Below are positions 25,138 through 63,724 of a stretch of DNA of 64,000 nt, one piece after another. The translations under genes and the position numbers were made by a program. The first letter of the stretch is position 1. Each line of letters starts with the position of its first letter. This stretch comes from an uncultured cyanobacterium (GTDB lineage: Bacteria; Cyanobacteriota; Cyanobacteriia; Cyanobacteriales; CAWCAG01), in assembly GCA_963793425.1 (NCBI GenBank), contig CAWCAG010000009.1, positions 1,077,805 to 1,141,804 of the forward strand, read 5' to 3'. The notes below the pieces were generated by a model, which searched no databases, was not told where the DNA came from, and saw only the letters and a program-made list of their open reading frames with translations.

Positions 25138-25737
25138 TCAATTATCAATTGATAAAGCTTGTCTAAATTCTCGTACCGCCTGAAGATGATTAGGCAACTC
25201 AACATACTTTTTAAACAAATTTATATCTAATCTAGGCAGACATTTACTTGTTTCAAGTCTTCGATAACCAATCTTTGCTTCTACTTTTTCTAAGGCATAA
25301 ATTGATAAACTTCCTGCTTCCCAAAACCAAACTTCGGGAATATTTAACCTTTTGTATGCTTCTAACTTATCAATTCCCCCACTAGTAACCACAACTTCAA
25401 CAACCAAGTCAGGATAATCTCTACCTTCATTTAATTCATAGGATAAATCAGCTTCCCTTTTAACCAATCCTGTTTCACTTTCTAAAGTCATAGAACCAGT
25501 AGGAGTATAGTTAATATTGGCTATTTCTAAATAAATATCTAGTAGACTAGAAATACGCTGTTTAATGACTTCATGTTTTCTTCCTGGCATGAGACGTAAT
25601 TCTAAAATCCCCTTAAGAAAAGATAACCTAACTCCTGGGCGCTCAAGAATTGACTGTACAGTCTTAAATTCTTGCCAAGTCATTTTATCAAATAAAATAG
25701 GTTGTTCAGAAATAGTTTCTGCGATCGCAAATGTCAT
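25138..25737 (-). CDS. Uma2-family (DUF820) PD-(D/E)xK endonuclease-fold protein
   Basis: EADLSY, PDLVVEVV, YKRLNIPEVW motifs. Confidence 0.9.
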   Translation of the reverse strand: MTFAIAETISEQPILFDKMTWQEFKTVQSILERPGVRLSFLKGILELRLMPGRKHEVIKQRISSLLDIYLEIANINYTPTGSMTLESETGLVKREADLSYELNEGRDYPDLVVEVVVTSGGIDKLEAYKRLNIPEVWFWEAGSLSIYALEKVEAKIGYRRLETSKCLPRLDINLFKKYVELPNHLQAVREFRQALSIDN

Positions 25738-25751
25738 AACTTTCTCCTTTA

Positions 25752-26816
25752 TTAACGTCGCATAATAAGCTCTAAATCCTCTCCAAACATTGCCTCTAGT
25801 AACTCTTCAAGTTCTTCTGGAACGACTGGAGAAGCAGAAGCTGGCCCTTTAATAAAGTCTTTAATCGTAATCTTGCGATCGCGGAAATCTTGAACAAAAT
25901 TACGGACTTCTTCTAAAATATCAATTTCCATTTGACCTTCTTCAAGGGTATTACCAACTATATCTATACCCTCTCGTTTAGCACTACGATAAGCTTTTAC
26001 CATTTGACCTTCAGGAGTACTCTTAACTTGATTTAGTTCTGTTTTAAGTTGTTCAAGTTGTTCAGTTAGTAACTCAATTTCTTTTTCTAATTGTCTTTCT
26101 TGTTCATTTTGAGCAGAAGCGCGAAAATCTTCTTTGTTGCTCTGACTTTCAATTTCTAATAATCTGGCATAATCACCATTTTTATAGGCAAGATTAATCT
26201 CTTTCATCACTTCTGTGTGATGATTTTGGGTTTCCTCATCAGCCACTTTATCAGGATGAAACTTATCTGCTAACTTCAAAAAAAGCTTCCTTAAATCCTT
26301 AGAAGCCCTACCCTTAACTTCTGCACCAGTTTCTGCAAATAATTCTTCTTGCTCACCAAAAAAGTTCCGGGGATTTGAAGAATGAAAATCTTCTTCTTCT
26401 GGGGCAAAATCTTCTTCCATTTCCTCATGCTCTGATGGGTCAAGGCGAGAGGAAATACGTCCTGTTAATTGAAGGGTTTTGTATACTTCTTCAATTTGCT
26501 TTTTTGACTGCTTTCCGAAGCGACGTTTAGTTAAAATTTCGTCGAACAAATTATGAATTTCTTGATCAATTTTGAGGAGTTGCTCGTATAAAGAGCTACT
26601 TTTAGCTACCATTTCCATGGCAACCTCCCTTACTTGCCCAGTCAAGTTAGATAATTCTGTTCTTCTGCGCTTGATTTGGGTAAGAAGTTTTTTGTGTTGT
26701 TGCTGAAGAAACTCAAGTCTTCCACTGAGAGAGGCAAAGGAAAGTGTTGACTCATCAGCAGATGGGGAAGCTGTAGATGTGGTTTGGGAGGGGGTTTTTC
26801 TTTTCCTTCTGGCCAT
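25752..26816 (-). CDS. Coiled-coil protein with internal J-domain
   Basis: LRKLFLKLADKFHPDK...MKEINLAY (HPD motif). Confidence 0.82.
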   Translation of the reverse strand: MARRKRKTPSQTTSTASPSADESTLSFASLSGRLEFLQQQHKKLLTQIKRRRTELSNLTGQVREVAMEMVAKSSSLYEQLLKIDQEIHNLFDEILTKRRFGKQSKKQIEEVYKTLQLTGRISSRLDPSEHEEMEEDFAPEEEDFHSSNPRNFFGEQEELFAETGAEVKGRASKDLRKLFLKLADKFHPDKVADEETQNHHTEVMKEINLAYKNGDYARLLEIESQSNKEDFRASAQNEQERQLEKEIELLTEQLEQLKTELNQVKSTPEGQMVKAYRSAKREGIDIVGNTLEEGQMEIDILEEVRNFVQDFRDRKITIKDFIKGPASASPVVPEELEELLEAMFGEDLELIMRR

Positions 26817-26923
26817 GAATCAAAAAAGAGGACGAACATTAAAATCCACTTTAGTTTACCTAACTTTTTGGATTTAACAACGACCCAAGTTTAACTATCC
26901 CATGGCATCACCACTTTTTACCC

Positions 26924-26998
26924 AAAAAGAAAAGGCTTCTGGGAGTCTGGCCGTGTTTCGACCCCAAAAGCCTTTTCTTTAATTTTCGCTCCTCACAC
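26924..26998 (-). ncRNA. yfr2: Yfr2-family cyanobacterial sRNA
   Basis: Minus strand: -10-like TACACT, then 6 nt, then GTGTGAGGAGCG... followed by a long hairpin with loop GAAACACGGC and a U-rich 3' end. Matches the Yfr2 5' motif and loop motif as I recall them. Confidence 0.72.
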
Positions 26999-27186
26999 AA
27001 ATACAGTGTATACCTAACCATTCTGTTTTTATAAGGGAGTAGTGACACTTTTCTAACTGACACTCTTCTATTGGGTTGCTAATTGCTAGTTGCTAGCCGC
27101 TAATAGTTTTCACCCCAGCTCCCCATCTCCCCATCTCCCAATCTCCCAATCTCCCTAGCTCCCTAGCCCCCTAACTCCCTAACTCC

Positions 27187-28500
27187 CTAACCCCGTCTTC
27201 CCGTTTTCATAGGCAGTTTGATAATAAATTCTGTTCCTCTATTTACATGAGAAATACATTTAAGTTGTCCTTGATGTTTTTCTTTAATTATGTGGTAACT
27301 ACAAGCAATAGCTAAATATTTTTCTGTATCAACTCCTGGGGTATTAAACAAATTATCAAATAAATAATCTGGATCTACTTCAGTTATGCCAAAACCATTA
27401 TCCATAATAGAAATTGTGAGATAATTATTATCAATTACTTCTGTATGAATAGTAATTTTTGGTTCTCTATTTTCTTTTTTTCTCCTTTGTTCATCTAATA
27501 CATTGACAGCATTAGTAATAATGACCATAAACACCTGATTAATCTCTCCTAGATAACATTCAATCAAAGGCAAATCACCATATTCTTTAACTACTTTAAT
27601 GATAGGTTCCCCTACTTTTGCCTTCAAACGATGCTGTAAAAGGGTCAAACAGCTATCAAGTCCTTCATGAATATCTACTAATTTGAAATCCGTCATGCCA
27701 AAACTAGAGAAGTTACGCAAAGACTGAACTAACCCATAAATACGTTCCGCCCCTATATCCATTGAGGTAAGTAATTGCAATAGATCAGATTTAAGAAAAT
27801 CTAGATCAATAGCTTCTATTTCTTGAGCGATCGCCGCAGTTGTTTCTGGCAATGCTTCTTGATACATCGTTAAAAGTTTGAGTAAACTTTGGGCATAACT
27901 ACGAGCGTGGGATAAGTTACCGTAAATGAAGTTAATGGGGTTGTTTAGTTCATTAGCAATACTCACTACTAACTGCCCCAAACTAGACATTTTTTCACTT
28001 ACAATTAGATGAGATTGAGCTTTTTGTAGTTGTTGTAAAGTCTGAGCTAGTTGCTGTGATTTAGCTTTTTCTTGTGCTTCGGATTCCTGTAATTGTTCTT
28101 GCAAACGTAGACTATTAATTTGAGTTTCTACCCTCGCAACAACTTCTTCGAGTTGAAACGGTTTAGTAATGTAATCTGCTGCACCAAGCTCAAAAGCTTT
28201 GACTTTATCAAAAACATCGCTCAAAGCGCTAACAAAAATAATGGGGATATGGCGAGTTTCTTCCTCTGCTTTGAGTTTTTGACAAACTTCAAAGCCATCC
28301 ATTTGTGGCATATTTATATCCAACAAAATCAAATCTGGCGGTAGCACTTGGATAGACTTTAAGGCTAAAGCACCAGTGATGGCACTGCGTACGTCATAAT
28401 TCTGAGTCTTCAACATCGCAGAAAGAAGACGGAGATTGTTGGGCATATCATCAACGATGAGAATGTTTCCTTTGAAACCTTCTACTCCATTGCTACTCAT
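27187..28500 (-). CDS. Receiver + HisKA/HATPase hybrid protein, degenerate (probable pseudokinase)
   Basis: Intact receiver (IVDD, LLDINMP, KPF); H-box reads SIANELNNP; G2 box is lost. Confidence 0.82.
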   Translation of the reverse strand: MSSNGVEGFKGNILIVDDMPNNLRLLSAMLKTQNYDVRSAITGALALKSIQVLPPDLILLDINMPQMDGFEVCQKLKAEEETRHIPIIFVSALSDVFDKVKAFELGAADYITKPFQLEEVVARVETQINSLRLQEQLQESEAQEKAKSQQLAQTLQQLQKAQSHLIVSEKMSSLGQLVVSIANELNNPINFIYGNLSHARSYAQSLLKLLTMYQEALPETTAAIAQEIEAIDLDFLKSDLLQLLTSMDIGAERIYGLVQSLRNFSSFGMTDFKLVDIHEGLDSCLTLLQHRLKAKVGEPIIKVVKEYGDLPLIECYLGEINQVFMVIITNAVNVLDEQRRKKENREPKITIHTEVIDNNYLTISIMDNGFGITEVDPDYLFDNLFNTPGVDTEKYLAIACSYHIIKEKHQGQLKCISHVNRGTEFIIKLPMKTGRRG

Positions 28501-37582: not shown

Positions 37583-38158
37583 TTACTGGGAATTAATTTC
37601 TAATAATCCATCGGGAGGATTAATTTCTAAGCGACCAGCTTTTAGATCAACCACCGGAACAATTTCTTTAACAAAAGGAATAAAGATTTTTCTTGGTACA
37701 GAAGGTGCAGCTTTTTTATCTAAAGCTTTTGTTTCTTCCTTAAGTTTAACTTCCAATAAATCGTTTCCTGCTGAAAAAATATCTACAACTTTACCAATTA
37801 CTTGGCTACTTTTTTGGTTGTAAACTTCTAAATCAACTAAGTCACGGACATGATACTCATCTTCGGCTAAATCCGGTAAGCTATCTTTGGTAACTAGCAA
37901 TTTATAGCCTCGCAATGCTTCTGCGCGATCGCGTCCTTGAACTTCAGCTAATTGAATAACATAGAGTTTTTTTCCTGGTAAAAAGCGTCCTTTAATAAGT
38001 TCTACTTTTTGAGGAGGATTGCCTTGAAGATCCCTTAACCAACGTTTCCCTGGCTCCTCAAAACGTTCGGGAAAATCAGAGGTGCTAAGAACTCGCATTT
38101 CTCCTTTTAAGCCTTGAGGAGCAACAATTTTACCAATTTCTAACCATTCTTGTTTCAT
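37583..38158 (-). CDS. rimM: Ribosome maturation factor RimM
   Basis: IGKIVAPQGLKGE, DFPERF, IPFVKEIV motifs. Confidence 0.95.
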   Translation of the reverse strand: MKQEWLEIGKIVAPQGLKGEMRVLSTSDFPERFEEPGKRWLRDLQGNPPQKVELIKGRFLPGKKLYVIQLAEVQGRDRAEALRGYKLLVTKDSLPDLAEDEYHVRDLVDLEVYNQKSSQVIGKVVDIFSAGNDLLEVKLKEETKALDKKAAPSVPRKIFIPFVKEIVPVVDLKAGRLEINPPDGLLEINSQ

Positions 38159-38173
38159 GATTAATATAGAATT

Positions 38174-39187
38174 TTAAAAAGCAGTTTGCAAAATATTTTG
38201 GGAACCAGTTTGGTTATTGGTATGATCTGAAGTCTGCGAATAATCCCAGTTTTCAACAGTTTGTCGATAAAACCAAGAGTTGAGTTTTTCCTCTTCTACA
38301 TAGCCTTTCAAAGCAGGATCAACCCAGATATGCAGTTTATGGGAACAACCTAACTCTAAAGCTGCACTTTCTAGATATTGCCATTGCCGAATAAAGCACT
38401 CTGCCCAAGATTTTCTAGTCATAATAGATTCAGCAAAATCAAGTCCTGCTGCTAACATCCTCTTCCCATTAGTACCCCTAGCATTTATAGGTTCCCAAAA
38501 TATAATTTCTGGGTCAACTTCCATAATTTTCTCTAAATGTACTTTGAAATCGTCGTGCTTCATAGAAGGTGGAGTAGGGGCAACGGCAACATACAAGCGG
38601 CAACCAGCTTGATGACCTTGCAATAAGGCTTGGTAACGGGCAGTAGTTGGTGGTGCTTGTGGTTCAATCTTACGACTTAGTTCATCATCTAAATAAGGTA
38701 AACTCATGCCAATTGTGACATTAGGATGATTGAGTATATCGATATCTTTTACCCACAAGGGAGAACGAGTTAAAATCCTGACTCGCTTGTTGTATTTAAT
38801 CAGAACTTCTACAACTTGACGAGTGATATTCGCAGTTGCTTGATTTTGATAAGGATCTGTTCCAGAACATAACAAGACTACGCCTTTTCCTGATGGTGTA
38901 TCTTGCCAATATTTCTCTTTTTTAATAGCAAGAATTTTCTCTAGTTTTTCAGGTATTTCTTCACGAACAAATAGATACTTTCCCCATTCTAATTGGGGAT
39001 TGTTTACACCTTTCTCTTTAAGCTTTTTCTGATTGGTTCTTATGACTGGGGTTGCTGGAACATAACAAAAGCTACAACCATGCAAACATCCGGTTGCTAC
39101 GTTGATAACGTAATCGCATAGACCTTTTTTATTAAGGTTGCTTTTTTGCAGAGGATTAACTATTTCTTCAGTGCCTTGAATAATCAT
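38174..39187 (-). CDS. Radical SAM protein, spore-photoproduct-lyase-like clade
   Basis: NVATGCLHGCSFCY (CxxxCxxC), TDPYQ, ILTRS, IEP motifs. Confidence 0.85.
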   Translation of the reverse strand: MIIQGTEEIVNPLQKSNLNKKGLCDYVINVATGCLHGCSFCYVPATPVIRTNQKKLKEKGVNNPQLEWGKYLFVREEIPEKLEKILAIKKEKYWQDTPSGKGVVLLCSGTDPYQNQATANITRQVVEVLIKYNKRVRILTRSPLWVKDIDILNHPNVTIGMSLPYLDDELSRKIEPQAPPTTARYQALLQGHQAGCRLYVAVAPTPPSMKHDDFKVHLEKIMEVDPEIIFWEPINARGTNGKRMLAAGLDFAESIMTRKSWAECFIRQWQYLESAALELGCSHKLHIWVDPALKGYVEEEKLNSWFYRQTVENWDYSQTSDHTNNQTGSQNILQTAF

Positions 39188-39363
39188 AAGATATTACCTA
39201 AATAGTAAAAATAGTTAAATAACTTTTTATTGCTTATTTATAAAATTTATGAGCTTAATTTCTTTTGTTTGATCGTATTCAAAATTATATCATTGATTAC
39301 AAACAAGTACAAAAATCCATATAATAATTGTCAGAAGCTAATTAGATTAAATTAATACAAAAT

Positions 39364-40254
39364 ATGAGCAAGCAATCCTTTGGTGGAGACTGGACAGAAG
39401 AAAAGTTAGAAAGGATTCGTAAATATCTTTCTGCTTACACAACTATTATGAGAAAGCAGGGATATTTTAAATATGCTTACATAGATGCTTTCGCTGGAAC
39501 AGGATATCGACAATTAAAAGACAAAAAAGAACAGGGTCAATTACTGCTTCCTGAACTTACTGAACAAGAACCACAACAATTGATGGATGGTTCAGTAAGA
39601 ATTGCGCTTCAGGTAGAACCAAGGTTTGATAAATATATTTTTATTGAAAAAGATCCAGACAAGACTTCGGAGTTGGAAAAGCTAAAAGCAGAGTTTACAG
39701 AAAAGAGCGAAGACATAATTATAGTGAATGAGGATGCTAATGCTTACCTACAAAACTTATGTGATACTAAAAATTGGCAGAAACATAGAGCAGTACTATT
39801 TTTAGATCCATTTGGTATGCAAATACCTTGGTCAACAATTGAGTTGATTGCCAAAACAGAGGCGATTGACTTGTGGTATTTATTTCCTTTGGGAGTTGCG
39901 GTTAATCGTTTATTAAAAAGAGATGGAAATATCAAAAAGTCTTGGCGAAAGAGGCTCGATGAGCTTTTTGGTACTGATGATTGGTATGATGCTTTTTATG
40001 CACCGAAAGAGCAACTAAGTTTATTCGATTACAACTCTGAGCAAATTAACGAAGTTAAAAAGATATCAACCTATGAATCGATTAGTAAATATTTTGTCAA
40101 GCGATTAGAGAATATATTCCCAGGAGTAGCAGAAAATCCTCTTGTACTTCATAACTCTTGTAATACTCCTCTGTATTTACTATGTTTTGCCGCCGCTAAT
40201 CCTAAAGGTGCAAAAACAGCAATAAGGATTGCCCAAGATATATTAAAAAAGTAA
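39364..40254 (+). CDS. tcmP: TcmP (three-Cys-motif partner)-type SAM-dependent methyltransferase
   Basis: WTEEKL..KYL.AYT, YIDAFAGTG, FIEKD, DAN, FLDPFG, PLYLLCFA motifs. Confidence 0.85.
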   Translation: MSKQSFGGDWTEEKLERIRKYLSAYTTIMRKQGYFKYAYIDAFAGTGYRQLKDKKEQGQLLLPELTEQEPQQLMDGSVRIALQVEPRFDKYIFIEKDPDKTSELEKLKAEFTEKSEDIIIVNEDANAYLQNLCDTKNWQKHRAVLFLDPFGMQIPWSTIELIAKTEAIDLWYLFPLGVAVNRLLKRDGNIKKSWRKRLDELFGTDDWYDAFYAPKEQLSLFDYNSEQINEVKKISTYESISKYFVKRLENIFPGVAENPLVLHNSCNTPLYLLCFAAANPKGAKTAIRIAQDILKK

Positions 40255-40274
40255 TTATTTCTATTAATCAGCAG

Positions 40275-41426
40275 ATGATAATATTACTCCTAATCCTAAT
40301 TAGCGGTTCCCTGTTTTTCTACTTAGCTTGTGCTTGGTTTACTTGGCGCTTCTTTGCCTCATCATCTCAAAACAATGTTAATTTTACTCCACCTGTAGCT
40401 ATTGCTATATCTGTCTGTGGTTTGGAACCTGGTGCGTGGGAAAATTGGTCATCTTTTTGTCAACAAGATTATCCTGACTATCAAATCCTATTTGGCGTTA
40501 CAGATCCTCAAGATCCGGCTCTACCTTTATTAGAAAAACTAGTAGCAACCTATCCTGAAAAAGTTAAACTTTTCTCTGGATTAGAACCAAAAGGAATTAA
40601 TCATAAAGATAGTAATCTCAACTATCTCCTGCAACAAACTGAACGAGAAATAATCATTTTTGCCGACAGTGATATTAGAGTTAATCCTTACTACATCTCT
40701 ACGATTATTAGTCCCTTAGCTGATACCCAAATTGGTATGGTAACTTGCGCTTTCATTGGCTACAATCCCCAGAGTTTGGGTGCTGGAATCGCCTCTTTTG
40801 GACGCTGTTGTGATTTTATTCCTAGCCTCCTAATTGCCCGCTTCCTTGATGGAGGGCTTAAGTGTGCCATCGGTACAACTATTGCTACTCGCAAATCTGC
40901 CCTAGCTAAATATGGCGGCTTGCATCTCAACCGTATTGGTTCTGATTATAATTTGGGTAAACGAGCCGCAGAAGCTGGATATAGAGTAGAATTGTCTCCC
41001 TATATTTTGGAGTCTGATACTGGGGAAGAAGGGGTTAAACAGGTTTATCAAAGGGAATTACGCTGGGCAAGAACTATTCGCTTCAATCGCGGGCTACAGT
41101 ACTATACAATAGCGTTTTGCTACGGTACGGTTTACTGCCTTCCTTTACTCATTGTTTCTGGTTTCGCTAACTGGGCGATCGCAGTTACTTTAATAGCCTG
41201 GACTATACGCTATGCTCAAGTATTAGTGTCCATTTCAACGATCAAAGCCCCTAACTTAATAATTTGGCTTTGGGCATTACCTCTACGAGACTTACTTAGC
41301 TTTGTAATTTGGCTAATAGGTTGCTTCGGACAAGAAGTTTATTGGCGCGGCCGCAAATTAAGAATTGAAGGAGATGGCATCATCCAAGAATCTCTCCCCG
41401 CCCATGACCTTTCTCCACGATCTTAA
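40275..41426 (+). CDS. GT2/GT21 glycosyltransferase (HpnI / ceramide glucosyltransferase-like)
   Basis: QDYPDY, GINHK, ADSDI (DxD), RELRWART motifs. Confidence 0.85.
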   Translation: MIILLLILISGSLFFYLACAWFTWRFFASSSQNNVNFTPPVAIAISVCGLEPGAWENWSSFCQQDYPDYQILFGVTDPQDPALPLLEKLVATYPEKVKLFSGLEPKGINHKDSNLNYLLQQTEREIIIFADSDIRVNPYYISTIISPLADTQIGMVTCAFIGYNPQSLGAGIASFGRCCDFIPSLLIARFLDGGLKCAIGTTIATRKSALAKYGGLHLNRIGSDYNLGKRAAEAGYRVELSPYILESDTGEEGVKQVYQRELRWARTIRFNRGLQYYTIAFCYGTVYCLPLLIVSGFANWAIAVTLIAWTIRYAQVLVSISTIKAPNLIIWLWALPLRDLLSFVIWLIGCFGQEVYWRGRKLRIEGDGIIQESLPAHDLSPRS

Positions 41427-60347: not shown

Positions 60348-60518
60348 AAAACATACCTCACTAATAAACTTTGGTTGAGTGTAATAATTATCACAGTTAC
60401 GATTATATTCAATGATTTACTCAGTTCTCTTTAAAAAGAAGAGATTTTCAACCAAATCCAATAATTATCAATTTAGTCTACGACAATGGCAAAGCCATAA
60501 AATCATCAATTGATAACT

Positions 60519-61553
60519 ATGTTTTCCAAAAATCTAAAAAAATTAGTGAGGCTAGGTTTGATTGCCACTTTAATAGCAATTGTCTTGAACTTATTAACTA
60601 TTGCTCCTCCTCATCAACCCCAACCTAGCAATCTAATCAAAGGAGTTTGGTTAACCCATTCAGGAAATTCTTTTTTAAATTATACAACAACAATTGATAA
60701 TGTATTTCATCGATTGTCACGCCTTAATTTTAATCGAGTTTATATCTCAGTTTATAACAAGGGGACAATTTACCCTAGTCAATATGGTCTGAGAAATCAT
60801 CAAGTATCTTTACCGAAAACAGACCCATTAAACGCAGCAATTAAACAAGGAAAACGTCAAGGGTTGAAAATTTATGCTTGGTATGAATATGGCATGATGC
60901 TCAATAAAAATGAGCTGCTAGGGAAACAACATCCCGATTGGCTTTTAACCACAAATGATGGGACTCAGTTAGTTAATAACAACCTTTGGCTCAATCCTGC
61001 CCATCCAGAAGTAGAAAGATATTGGCTCAATTTATTAACAGAAGTTGCAGCAAAATATCCTGAATTATCTGGGATTCAATTAGATGATCATTGGGGTATT
61101 CCTCAAGCATTTGGAAATCATCAATTAGAAATGAGTAATCTTACTAGAAAAGCCATAGAAGCAGTGAGGAAAGTAAATAGCAATCTCACTATTTCAGTTT
61201 CTCCCAACTCTTATAATTTTGCCCTGAAGAATTATAATCAAGATTGGCTTAGGTGGGTGAAAGAAAAACTAGTAGATGAAATTATTGTTCAGATTTATCG
61301 TCCTACAGCAACGGAAGTAGCCAAACATCTTGCAGCTTCAGGAATAAATATAGCTAGTCAATATGTACCAGTAGCAGTAGGAATTTATACAGGAGATCCT
61401 CGCAAGAGAAAGTCTTTAACAGAAATAGCTGAACAAGTATCAGTAGTAAAAAAATATAATTATGGTTATTCTTTGTTTTGTTGGGAATATTTGTTTACGC
61501 CTTTGCATAATAGTTCAAAGGAAGCAAGAGAAGAAGTTTTTAAGGCAAAATAA
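60519..61553 (+). CDS. Glycoside hydrolase-like 10 (GHL10/DUF187) family protein
   Basis: KGVWL, AWYEYG, WLNPAHPEV, GIQLDDH, QDW..W, QIYR motifs. Confidence 0.87.
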   Translation: MFSKNLKKLVRLGLIATLIAIVLNLLTIAPPHQPQPSNLIKGVWLTHSGNSFLNYTTTIDNVFHRLSRLNFNRVYISVYNKGTIYPSQYGLRNHQVSLPKTDPLNAAIKQGKRQGLKIYAWYEYGMMLNKNELLGKQHPDWLLTTNDGTQLVNNNLWLNPAHPEVERYWLNLLTEVAAKYPELSGIQLDDHWGIPQAFGNHQLEMSNLTRKAIEAVRKVNSNLTISVSPNSYNFALKNYNQDWLRWVKEKLVDEIIVQIYRPTATEVAKHLAASGINIASQYVPVAVGIYTGDPRKRKSLTEIAEQVSVVKKYNYGYSLFCWEYLFTPLHNSSKEAREEVFKAK

Positions 61554-61633
61554 TCAAGATGTTTATCCTTTTTAATGTATGAAAATGCTATTAAAAACTG
61601 TATCAGTTCACTTATAAGCCTATTAGGGTTTTT

Positions 61634-62167
61634 TTAAGCGAAATTAACTCCTCCTGATAAACGGGGTAATACGGCAGCCTGTATCTGCGAATGAGTCATA
61701 CGGGCATTTTCTTTTAAATACTGAGCCGCAACAGACATACCTAAAGATGCAGCCCCAGCAAAAGTTGAAACAGTCGGTTGATTATTTTCAATTCTAGGAA
61801 AAGCAATCGCTGGATTGTTGCCTAAATTTTCTCTGCGGTATGCTCCAAGAACGTAATTATATTGAGGTTGATTAACTTCAGCAACTGCAATATCTTCAAA
61901 TTGTCTACGTAAAAACTCACGTTGAGCTAATTGAGCATCCAAGCGCTTATCAAACCACTGTTGAGTACGTTTATAAAGTCTACCAGAAGCAAAAGCAGCT
62001 AGAGTAAGTCCTCCTAATGCAGTATTTAATAAGCTCAATCCTGGTGCTGATCTGATTAGGAAAATTAGCAAAAATGCGTTTGATTTTCGAGAATTTAAAA
62101 CGCCTAAATTGATAACGAATGAAGCTCCACCTAAAGTAGCATACTGAATGAATTTTCTTCTCTTCAT
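61634..62167 (-). CDS. Hypothetical protein with twin-arginine-like N-terminus
   Basis: MKRRKFIQY followed by a hydrophobic stretch. Confidence 0.6.
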   Translation of the reverse strand: MKRRKFIQYATLGGASFVINLGVLNSRKSNAFLLIFLIRSAPGLSLLNTALGGLTLAAFASGRLYKRTQQWFDKRLDAQLAQREFLRRQFEDIAVAEVNQPQYNYVLGAYRRENLGNNPAIAFPRIENNQPTVSTFAGAASLGMSVAAQYLKENARMTHSQIQAAVLPRLSGGVNFA

Positions 62168-62174
62168 AAATTGG

Positions 62175-62732
62175 TTATTCTAAAATATCTTCAAAAAAGA
62201 AAATAGCAGGACATTCATTGTGGTTAGAGCGAACACACTCTCCTTCTAAAGCGATGCTACGAGTGTTCTTTACATCTATAATCCAAGAAGTTAACTCTCC
62301 TTTTCTCACATCTTTATAGCCAGTAAAATTGCCATCTTTATATACTGATAAACGAGGATAACCCTCCAAGTAAGAACTATCAGGAATTCCTAGCGTAAGA
62401 CTTAATGTTTTCAATTTCGGTTCTTCACTAGGAGCAGCCAATCTACAAGCAACTTGTGTAGAGTACTTTGTTCCAATCGCTGCTGGAGGTCTATGTCTAT
62501 GGCTGCCTCCTCCTAAATAAGCAACAGCCCTCAAGACTTGGAGACTTACTGAAAAATCATCATTGATAACGTTATATTTTCCAGACCCTCTGTTTGCATT
62601 TATTGCTAAACATCCCATCTCACCTAGAGAAGCAACTCCTGAAGGACGGAGACTTTGTGCCTGAACTAAATTACCTGAAGTTACCAATGCTGTAGCCAAT
62701 ACAAAACCTGAGAAAAAGCGGCTCATATTCAT
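62175..62732 (-). CDS. Secreted beta-rich hypothetical protein (NPCBM-like carbohydrate-binding fold possible)
   Basis: Signal peptide ending VQA; four Cys; LSLTLGI.D / LSVY.DG / IDV.....IAL pattern. Confidence 0.55.
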   Translation of the reverse strand: MNMSRFFSGFVLATALVTSGNLVQAQSLRPSGVASLGEMGCLAINANRGSGKYNVINDDFSVSLQVLRAVAYLGGGSHRHRPPAAIGTKYSTQVACRLAAPSEEPKLKTLSLTLGIPDSSYLEGYPRLSVYKDGNFTGYKDVRKGELTSWIIDVKNTRSIALEGECVRSNHNECPAIFFFEDILE

Positions 62733-62998
62733 AAAAAAATATCTCAACTTGATTTGTACGTAAGTTTTTAATTAGAATTTATGATCTTTTTTACTGATTT
62801 ATATATCTATTACTTAAGTATATAACTACAAGCTTCTTTTTACTGCAAGAGTCAAATGGCTTAAGAGAAATGGCTTATACTAAACAGGGAATACAGGAAT
62901 ATTCTTATATACAGAGACTTTATGAAATTGATTTTACTGTTTACGGTCTTTTTCCCATAATTTCTATTATTTTACTACAGAAATTTATTGCAAAAAAG

Positions 62999-63724
62999 AT
63001 GTTTACTCAAGCAGCTAAAGTAAAACTTTCTCCTCAAGTAATTAGTATCTTAAAAGAACTAAAACCATACTTGAAAAATCTTTATCAAGAAGAACTAGCT
63101 AAAATTATTCTCTACGGCTCTCAAGCAAGAGGTGATGCTCAACCAGATTCTGATATAGATGTTTTGATTGTACTTAAATCTGACTTTTCTTTTTATCAAG
63201 AAAGCAAGAGAATCAATAATTTTGTTACCGATTTATGTTTAAAATATGAAGTGCTACTTAGTTGCAGTTTTTCTACCCTCACTCAACTTAAAAGCCAACC
63301 CACTGCTTTTTATCGCAACGTGACTAATGAAGGTATAGAAGTCATGGACTTAGAACAACAAAAGCTTTTAGAAAAAGGGGCAAAAAGTTTAGCTGCTGCT
63401 AGAAAATTAAATCAAGAGAATTTTCCTGAATTTAGTGCTTCTAGGGCTTATTACTGTATGTTTTATATTGCTGAAGCCTTTTTACTTAAAGAGGGTTTAT
63501 CTTTTTCTAAGCATTCTGCTGTTATCGGCGCTTTCGGGCGAGAGTTTGCTAGTAAGAAAAGAATCCCTGTAGAATATCATCGCCACTTAATTGAGGCAGA
63601 AAGAATACGCTTGCAAGGAGATTACAATACTGATACTGAGATAACCAGAGATGATGCTAACACAGTAATAAATCAAGCTGAAATCATGCTCAATTTTGCT
63701 CAAAATAATCTTGACTTGATTTAA
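62999..63724 (+). CDS. Minimal nucleotidyltransferase (MNT) fused in frame to a HEPN domain
   Basis: LYGSQARGD...SDIDVLIV (MNT); SRAYY.MF, SKH..VI..F, R...DY (HEPN). Confidence 0.85.
   Translation: MFTQAAKVKLSPQVISILKELKPYLKNLYQEELAKIILYGSQARGDAQPDSDIDVLIVLKSDFSFYQESKRINNFVTDLCLKYEVLLSCSFSTLTQLKSQPTAFYRNVTNEGIEVMDLEQQKLLEKGAKSLAAARKLNQENFPEFSASRAYYCMFYIAEAFLLKEGLSFSKHSAVIGAFGREFASKKRIPVEYHRHLIEAERIRLQGDYNTDTEITRDDANTVINQAEIMLNFAQNNLDLI

Follow-up and report, generated by a model that had tools for sequence, protein, structure and literature searches.

The closest described relative of the gene pair considered here is TcmP + DUF5131 (PF07505, formerly phage Gp37/Gp68), which appears in PADLOC as PDC-M41 and PDC-M30. 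Both systems are candidates put forward by ‘guilt by embedding’, and we found no literature test of either. PADLOC lists the TcmP pair only in its DUF5131 form, NCBIfam names the TcmP/three-Cys-motif family and RefSeq annotates TcmP beside a ‘radical SAM protein’; the pair is of a catalogued but uncharacterised kind. Here we describe such a pair in a 64,000-nt stretch of contig CAWCAG010000009.1 from an uncultured cyanobacterium (hereafter the window), for which gene calls came from a scan of open reading frames (ORFs) and motifs were located by direct reading. The cassette at 38174–40254 comprises two intact divergent ORFs, one for a radical S-adenosylmethionine (SAM) protein resembling spore photoproduct lyase (SPL), termed rSAM below, and one for TcmP:

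38174–39187, minus strand: rSAM gene, 337 aa, SPL-like and COG1533-type, forming the module’s conserved core
39065–39088, minus strand: CX3CX2C [4Fe-4S]/SAM motif, C34-L-H-G-C38-S-F-C41, followed by the invariant Y42 (direct reading)
39364–40254, plus strand: TcmP gene, 296 aa, short form, the class-I Rossmann methyltransferase-fold partner
39478–39504, plus strand: YIDAFAGTG, TcmP residues 39–47, motif-I-like SAM-binding loop after beta-1 (direct reading)
39805–39816, plus strand: DPFG, TcmP residues 148–151, at the topological place of amino-methyltransferase motif IV (direct reading)

That the locus belongs to the TcmP/radical SAM pairs is highly likely. We favour, with modest confidence, the fuller reading that it is an intact copy of a mobile module, the rarer variant of the TcmP pair in which a related SPL-like (COG1533-type) rSAM replaces DUF5131, and that it serves DNA-directed modification or defence. 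DNA as the target is about an even bet, and an anti-phage role is suggested only tentatively.

The cassette has in common with TcmP + DUF5131 the TcmP family itself (415.2 bits on PDC-M41A, PDLC04635), a two-gene logic, patchy mobile spread, exchange of TcmP and a partner from the same radical SAM branch, and the short TcmPs of both partner kinds form one clade. The partners differ in that rSAM carries CX3CX2C rather than CX6CX2C, is ~80 aa longer and gives no match to PDC-M41B or PDC-M30B at E ≤ 1, whereas DUF5131 proteins score 345–365 bits on PDC-M41B. Of the two PDC-M41 components, A (TcmP) is present and a DUF5131-type B beside it is not, and a search of the window’s own genome for PF07505 gave no match; PADLOC as built would not call this cassette because the partner lacks a PDC-M41B or PDC-M30B match.

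Other known systems are more distant. SPL (SplB; PDB 4fhc and mutants) is only 13–15% identical to the window rSAM, which differs from it in an extra helical segment at about residues 45–100 and in an obligatory TcmP partner. RlmJ (the 23S rRNA m6A2030 methyltransferase; DUF519) and Trm1 are 11–18% identical to TcmP, with no sequence-level match; enzymes of this type carry (D/N)PP(Y/F), whereas TcmP has DPFG, is mobile, is never alone and bears a winged helix in its long forms. On haloarchaeal plasmids, tcmP occurs with two radical SAM genes of the NCBIfam ‘radical SAM mobile pair’ A/B type; nine such plasmids carry rSAM homologues that are 37–40% identical over ~90% of their length. There RefSeq places tcmP immediately upstream, as in the window pair, but the arrangement has three genes with two rSAMs, unlike that of the window, and the window rSAM falls far short of TIGR04470 (59 bits, cut-off 410).

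Conservation of the pairing, exchange of TcmP and mobility

We found 111 genomic rSAM loci and analysed the best 80, of which 79 could be assessed (L029 starts at a contig end). TcmP adjoins the rSAM homologue in 75 of the 79: 77 loci have an upstream ORF, and in 70 of them the nearest one matches TIGR04474 (five of these below the 53-bit cut-off), while a purpose-built TcmP profile adds five loci, two intact (L050, L042), two frameshifted (L015, L078) and one at a contig edge (L081). The four exceptions comprise a locus with no TcmP (L032), one with a broken rSAM (L049), one with a TIGR00027 methyltransferase instead (L058) and one with Dcm and Dam domains (L069). The last is a 1178-aa ORF in a metagenome-assembled genome (MAG) of Hormoscilla (L069:3321–6857) that combines a C5-cytosine methylase (Dcm), a Dam-like domain and rSAM, has no TcmP and keeps rSAM’s own Met in frame; since the sole such record is P0124, the fusion may reflect a lost stop codon.

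A search of 401 cyanobacterial genomes, with adjacency taken as within 2 kb, placed TcmP in 66 genomes (70 places), DUF5131 in 78 (90 places) and the full-length rSAM family, patchily, in 13. Of the 70 TcmP places, 53 adjoin DUF5131 and 14 adjoin rSAM (one a decayed remnant); the remaining three, all fragments, are beside neither, and a three-Cys radical-SAM-type neighbour accompanies 67 of the 70. TcmP therefore always has one of two alternative partners, at a ratio of ~4:1 in favour of DUF5131. This count, which the initial annotation had proposed, agrees with its statement that TcmP usually pairs with DUF5131, and its refuting condition, a pairing not conserved elsewhere, falls away because 75 of 79 loci are paired, as is every one of the 13 full-length rSAM genes from the 401-genome search. 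The dependence runs one way: an intact TcmP without a partner was never seen among the 70 places, whereas DUF5131 stands with TcmP at 53 of its 90 places and without it at 37, and rSAM orphans also occur. TcmP depends on its partner, and the partner does not depend on TcmP.

This asymmetry bears on two interpretations. Partners that occur without TcmP, together with a TcmP that is never intact alone, argue against classical restriction-modification logic, and the same pattern fits a TcmP that is either the targeting subunit or the enzyme of a second step, acting on the rSAM product. An alternative interpretation is that the pair is a selfish addiction or toxin–antitoxin-like module, in which one product is harmful, the other neutralises it and the unit persists without benefit to the host. 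Its form, a compact mobile two-gene unit at varied sites, often among toxin–antitoxin genes, would suit that description, as would the decay and turnover seen, but we consider it very unlikely: both proteins have enzyme folds and conserved cofactor motifs, and the persistence of orphan rSAM and DUF5131 genes beside a TcmP that is never intact alone fits neither a toxic rSAM that needs TcmP nor a stable toxin.

The two partner kinds are related, and TcmP has moved between them. In RadicalSAM.org, DUF5131 constitutes Megacluster-5-2, beside SPL as 5-3. Aligned by hhalign, the rSAM alignment and 20 DUF5131 proteins match weakly (probability 18%, E 0.0013, 192 columns), with the Cys motifs in register apart from a three-residue insertion. 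In the TcmP tree, 11 window-type short TcmPs and six short DUF5131-partnered TcmPs form a single clade (17 rows; Shimodaira–Hasegawa-like approximate likelihood ratio test, SH-aLRT, 100), apart from 25 long rSAM-partnered and five Pseudanabaena-type TcmPs, and the well-supported branches force at least two changes of partner. The earlier treatment of DUF5131 and the SPL-like rSAM as unlike kinds of partner does not hold up against these neighbouring Megaclusters and at least two partner switches; the two are interchangeable partners of TcmP. On the rSAM tree, TcmP class changes 16 times against a minimum of four. Sister rSAMs with different TcmP classes include L014/L020 (support 100) and L047/L048 (96), in which rSAM branch lengths are 0.03–0.08 and the TcmPs ~20% identical. 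Because near-identical rSAM genes carry unrelated TcmP classes, TcmP is evidently swapped; this scatter of TcmP class over the rSAM tree therefore marks rSAM as the engine that is conserved and TcmP as the part that is exchanged.

The pair is a self-contained, horizontally mobile two-gene module. The gene downstream of rSAM varies from locus to locus (74 loci), and the module is taken to be self-contained because no third gene is conserved. Many of these downstream neighbours are housekeeping genes, such as AcrB, PntB (seven Nostocales loci), aldehyde dehydrogenase, HisF and TypA, and in Coleofasciculus the module sits between phnE and phnC. Sixteen of the 74, counted without a control, were classed as restriction, methylase, toxin–antitoxin or nuclease genes (Dcm twice, HindVP, EcoEI R, GmrSD, SNF2, HNH twice, PIN, BrnT, Gp49, HTH_37, NTase_sub_bind, DUF3368, PLDc_2 and dynamin/TerB). 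Nostoc sp. C052 carries a divergent tcmP/rSAM pair, its rSAM 72.6% identical, next to BREX-1 genes on the conjugative plasmid pC052_C. Among the haloarchaea, Haladaptatus has tcmP and two rSAM genes beside a DEAD-box helicase; two Synechococcus phages carry TcmP homologues (32.5% identical) near recT, and Acidianus two-tailed virus has rSAM homologues (31% identical). In Synechococcus phage Yong-M2-251 (L124:3501–5119), where the record’s gene call is partial, the TcmP homologue is full-length and is followed by a convergent, DUF5131-sized gene of 249 aa, a few genes from recT.

The two proteins and their possible target

The rSAM protein passes Pfam Radical_SAM (PF04055; 32.8 bits, gathering threshold 29.5), and C34, C38, C41 and Y42 are invariant in 20 rSAM homologues, as are C24, C196 and C281, with C107 nearly so. 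In the solved SPL the catalytic H-donor is C140, to which one of these extra cysteines may or may not correspond. There are 366 homologues at E ≤ 1e-5, of which the 120 best are 62–73% identical; the names among those listed are all cyanobacterial and often read ‘SPL family radical SAM protein’. Scores fall far under the NCBIfam cut-offs for PA0069 (93.1/360), Rv2578c (54.7/430) and radical SAM mobile pair B (59/410), so that, judged by profile, rSAM is related to these families and a member of none. Neither rSAM nor TcmP has a significant sequence match in the PDB. The predicted rSAM model (predicted local distance difference test, pLDDT, 77.7) has a partial TIM-barrel fold, as in solved radical SAM enzymes, and Foldseek ranks 1–6 are all SPL (E 3e-7 to 3e-6; next entry 8e-5). 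HMMER also aligns residues 24–47 to the cluster motif of SPL chains, weakly (E 0.85). The label ‘SPL-like’ given in the initial annotation is thus apt as a resemblance, with a canonical CX3CX2C motif and SPL as the closest solved fold of the model, and is not supported as membership of SPL proper: on Pfam SPL (PF20903) the protein scores 16.4 bits against a cut-off of 27, over residues 21–46 alone.

Could the pair then serve DNA repair, with rSAM as a lyase that reverses a lesion of UV or desiccation type (a thymine dimer like the spore photoproduct) and TcmP as a lesion-recognition or accessory subunit? Besides the fold, Y42 follows the third Cys, like the tyrosine studied in SPL (the Y98F PDB entry), and many rSAM carriers are, from their record titles, mat- or crust-forming filamentous cyanobacteria. 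The distant relative Rv2578c is preceded in Mycobacterium tuberculosis by evidence of SOS control, namely a LexA site and induction that depends on RecA. We nevertheless consider repair quite unlikely, since the Pfam SPL match spans only 26 residues below cut-off, the patchy distribution (13/401), plasmid carriage by BREX, decay in a sister species and TcmP swaps are untypical of housekeeping repair, and a methyltransferase-like partner has no evident use to a repair lyase. Lower-ranked fold matches of rSAM include SuiB and SkfB, maturases of ribosomally synthesised and post-translationally modified peptides (RiPPs), and clusters for RiPPs and secondary metabolites often contain a radical SAM gene paired with a methyltransferase; even so, a pair that tailors small molecules or peptides (natural products), with no nucleic-acid link, is the explanation to which we give hardly any credence.

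Several cyanobacterial rSAM homologues carry an insertion exactly ahead of C41 (L067:3151–5124, L070:3861–5819 and L073:4995–6452; also P0121–P0123). L067 and L070 each have a 340-aa intein there that includes a LAGLIDADG homing-endonuclease domain, whereas the insertion in Prochloron (L073) is ~160 aa without an endonuclease match. COG1533 ranks with the DNA-metabolism proteins richest in inteins, and a 2016 intein survey lists COG1533 inteins for Actinobacteria only. Distant relatives are fused to AAA_25, DUF123 or ParB_N.

TcmP is securely placed in TIGR04474 (223.6 bits, cut-off 53, profile positions 1–260 of 263), as the initial annotation had it. Amino-methyltransferases are defined by the positions of motifs I and IV, and the SAM-binding YIDAFAGTG and amino-methyltransferase-like DPFG pointed out earlier are both present and, in the predicted model (pLDDT 86.9), follow the expected strands, beta-1 (36–41) preceding D41/G45/G47 and beta-4 (141–147) preceding D148. 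Although TcmP classes share only 16–25% identity with one another, K14, D41, G45, G47, G76, S77, F93, L104, D148 and R182 are invariant across 41 aligned TcmPs, and G151 is at least 90% conserved. Long TcmPs carry a winged-helix domain (PF22560). A search for TcmP fusions at 812–2315 aa gave four odd multi-domain records resembling merged gene calls.

The top TcmP folds are all RNA methyltransferases (RlmJ, Trm1, RsmD-like), which raises the alternative of hypermodification of a base in tRNA or rRNA, TcmP acting on an exocyclic amine in the manner of RlmJ or Trm1 and rSAM supplying a radical step. The rSAM gene moreover stops 15 nt from rimM, a ribosome maturation gene. That adjacency recurs in none of 20 relatives and none of the 74 downstream neighbours, however, and a patchy, mobile pair that travels on plasmids and phages and exchanges its TcmP rapidly does not resemble core RNA-modification enzymes; the winged helix on long TcmPs and the fusion of relatives to DNA-associated domains also speak against it, and we regard RNA modification as distinctly improbable.

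A DNA target is instead suggested by the SPL-like fold, the winged helix on long TcmPs and the Dcm-Dam-rSAM record, and likewise by the AAA_25, DUF123 and ParB_N fusions, the LAGLIDADG inteins before C41, the SOS-regulated Rv2578c and the 16 downstream neighbours of 74 classed as restriction, methylase, toxin–antitoxin or nuclease genes. The case for defence rests on the PADLOC ‘guilt by embedding’ candidates, the adjacency to BREX and the position of TcmP after hna: among genes tabulated as co-regulated in Sinorhizobium meliloti, grouped by putative transcriptional units, a TcmP gene comes directly behind hna. A literature search found no test of TcmP, DUF5131 or this rSAM family, one of the queries being swamped by unrelated ‘TCMP’ acronyms.

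We caution that a number of observations weigh against DNA-directed modification or defence. The rSAM protein matches no PADLOC model even at E ≤ 1, and the 50 best fold matches of TcmP, which RNA enzymes head, include no DNA methyltransferase. Orphan rSAMs without TcmP (the second copy in the sister-species genome G001, and L032) run counter to strict restriction-modification logic. Only one MAG record has the Dcm-Dam-rSAM fusion, the tally of defence-type downstream neighbours has no control, and the TcmP and rSAM trees are quick trees with long branches. In the window itself the cassette’s neighbours are housekeeping genes (rimM, HlyD-like, GT21, DUF4359) and form no defence island.

If the favoured reading of a DNA-directed module is correct, the pair would act on nucleic acid, most likely DNA. 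The rSAM protein would use its [4Fe-4S] cluster and SAM to generate a 5'-deoxyadenosyl radical, which, SPL-fashion, would take hydrogen from a flipped-out nucleotide. TcmP would hold SAM through DxFxGxG, an acidic residue ending beta-2, and DPFG, and might either choose the target or methylate an exocyclic amine on the rSAM product. Such chemistry could leave a mark by which own DNA is told from foreign, or could damage the foreign DNA. The two-step base chemistry that the initial annotation proposed, possibly anti-phage or epigenetic, is likewise an inference. In its boldest form, which we put forward as speculative and unlikely, the module would be a radical-chemistry counterpart of restriction-modification or DNA hypermodification, in which a swappable TcmP picks DNA sites and methylates, the conserved SPL-like rSAM flips out that same nucleotide and, by way of a 5'-deoxyadenosyl radical, builds an undescribed DNA base modification or lesions unmarked foreign DNA, and DUF5131 and COG1533-type proteins are interchangeable engines.

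The locus in the window and in a sister species

The genes and signals around and between the two ORFs are as follows:

37583–38158, minus strand: rimM, whose start lies 15 nt from the rSAM gene stop
39188–39363, no strand: divergent intergenic spacer, 176 nt, GC 0.18, presumed site of both promoters
39296–39325, plus strand: top sigma-70-like promoter match (10/12), 38 nt upstream of the TcmP start, a consensus match only
40275–41426, plus strand: GT21, a family-21 glycosyltransferase, starting 20 nt past the TcmP stop

The divergent arrangement of two intact genes around a very AT-rich 176-nt spacer, and the gaps of 15 nt to rimM and 20 nt to the glycosyltransferase, are as first described. 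Across 11 divergent loci the spacer is poorly conserved and its alignment yields no conserved operator; the exception is a -10 element resembling ATGATATAAT, which lies on the strand of the rSAM gene and is common to the window locus, L003 and L056. The total of promoter-like sites in the cassette region does not exceed that in shuffled sequence, and the terminator scan likewise does no better than shuffles. Both rimM and GT21 are downstream of, and co-stranded with, the adjoining cassette gene (37583–38173 and 40255–41426) with no terminator-like site between, so that they may be transcribed by read-through from the divergent promoters of the cassette. The 3' part of the rSAM gene contains a perfect inverted repeat of 14 nt, ATATTTTGGGAACC / GGTTCCCAAAATAT (38193–38206 and 38490–38503, arms 283 nt apart). 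No RNA dataset was listed as containing the stretch; the four with strong DNA matches belong to one study, and three of these may be the source sample.

The tight spacing and the missing highly iterated palindrome (HIP1) sites had been taken to suggest an inserted module, but the module is not a recent insertion here. In G001, a sister species of the same genus, the GT21 orthologue (86% identical) has a decayed cassette ahead of it (L094:4420–5579; G001:C11), the rSAM remnant having lost residues 1–68 including the Cys motif and the TcmP remnant residues 66–236. Because this decayed copy stands beside the GT21 orthologue, the cassette predates the split of the two species. No other or intact TcmP was found in the G001 genome; its rimM lies elsewhere, and a second rSAM of 291 aa (73% identical) is an orphan beside a STAND-type ATPase (L095:4197–6234). 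Insertion between rimM and GT21 was also rejected as an explanation, as a search of 20 relatives found none with the two side by side, and in G005 it is hpnH that precedes the GT21 orthologue. A search of the flanks for direct repeats or insertion scars bracketing the cassette found none.

HIP1 sites are abundant in the window (34 versus 0.17 expected), giving it a cyanobacterial character, and are indeed missing from the cassette, but their absence does not serve as a sign of insertion: the HIP1-free gap (37925–41175, 3250 nt) is not unusual, being only the seventh largest of the 33 in the window. GC content is only mildly low, at 0.380 for the rSAM gene and 0.350 for TcmP, where 49 ORFs of the window average 0.405 (sd 0.031) and rimM itself has 0.368. 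Both HIP1 absence and GC were rejected as marks of recent insertion.

Two other features of the window and its relatives are recorded here. The G005 orthologue of GT21 stands directly behind hpnH (adenosyl-hopene transferase, 546 bits; L097:3645–5994), and the window GT21 may for that reason belong to hopanoid modification. Two runs of ORFs with markedly low GC (25138–28500 and 60510–63724; GC 0.33–0.38, GC at third codon positions 0.21–0.27, below the cassette) may be other acquired segments.

Implications of the radical SAM variant

Pairs of the TcmP/three-Cys-motif kind are widespread, and archaea, phages and plasmids also carry homologues of one gene or of both. With a canonical radical SAM partner whose nearest solved relative acts on DNA, the variant described here offers an easier route to the function of the pair, and the decayed copy at the same place in the sister species provides a natural control. 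Should the proposed function prove wrong, the pair would be an ordinary accessory module; should it prove right, whether as a new DNA mark or as radical damage to foreign DNA, it would represent a new enzymatic principle in bacterial self/non-self discrimination.

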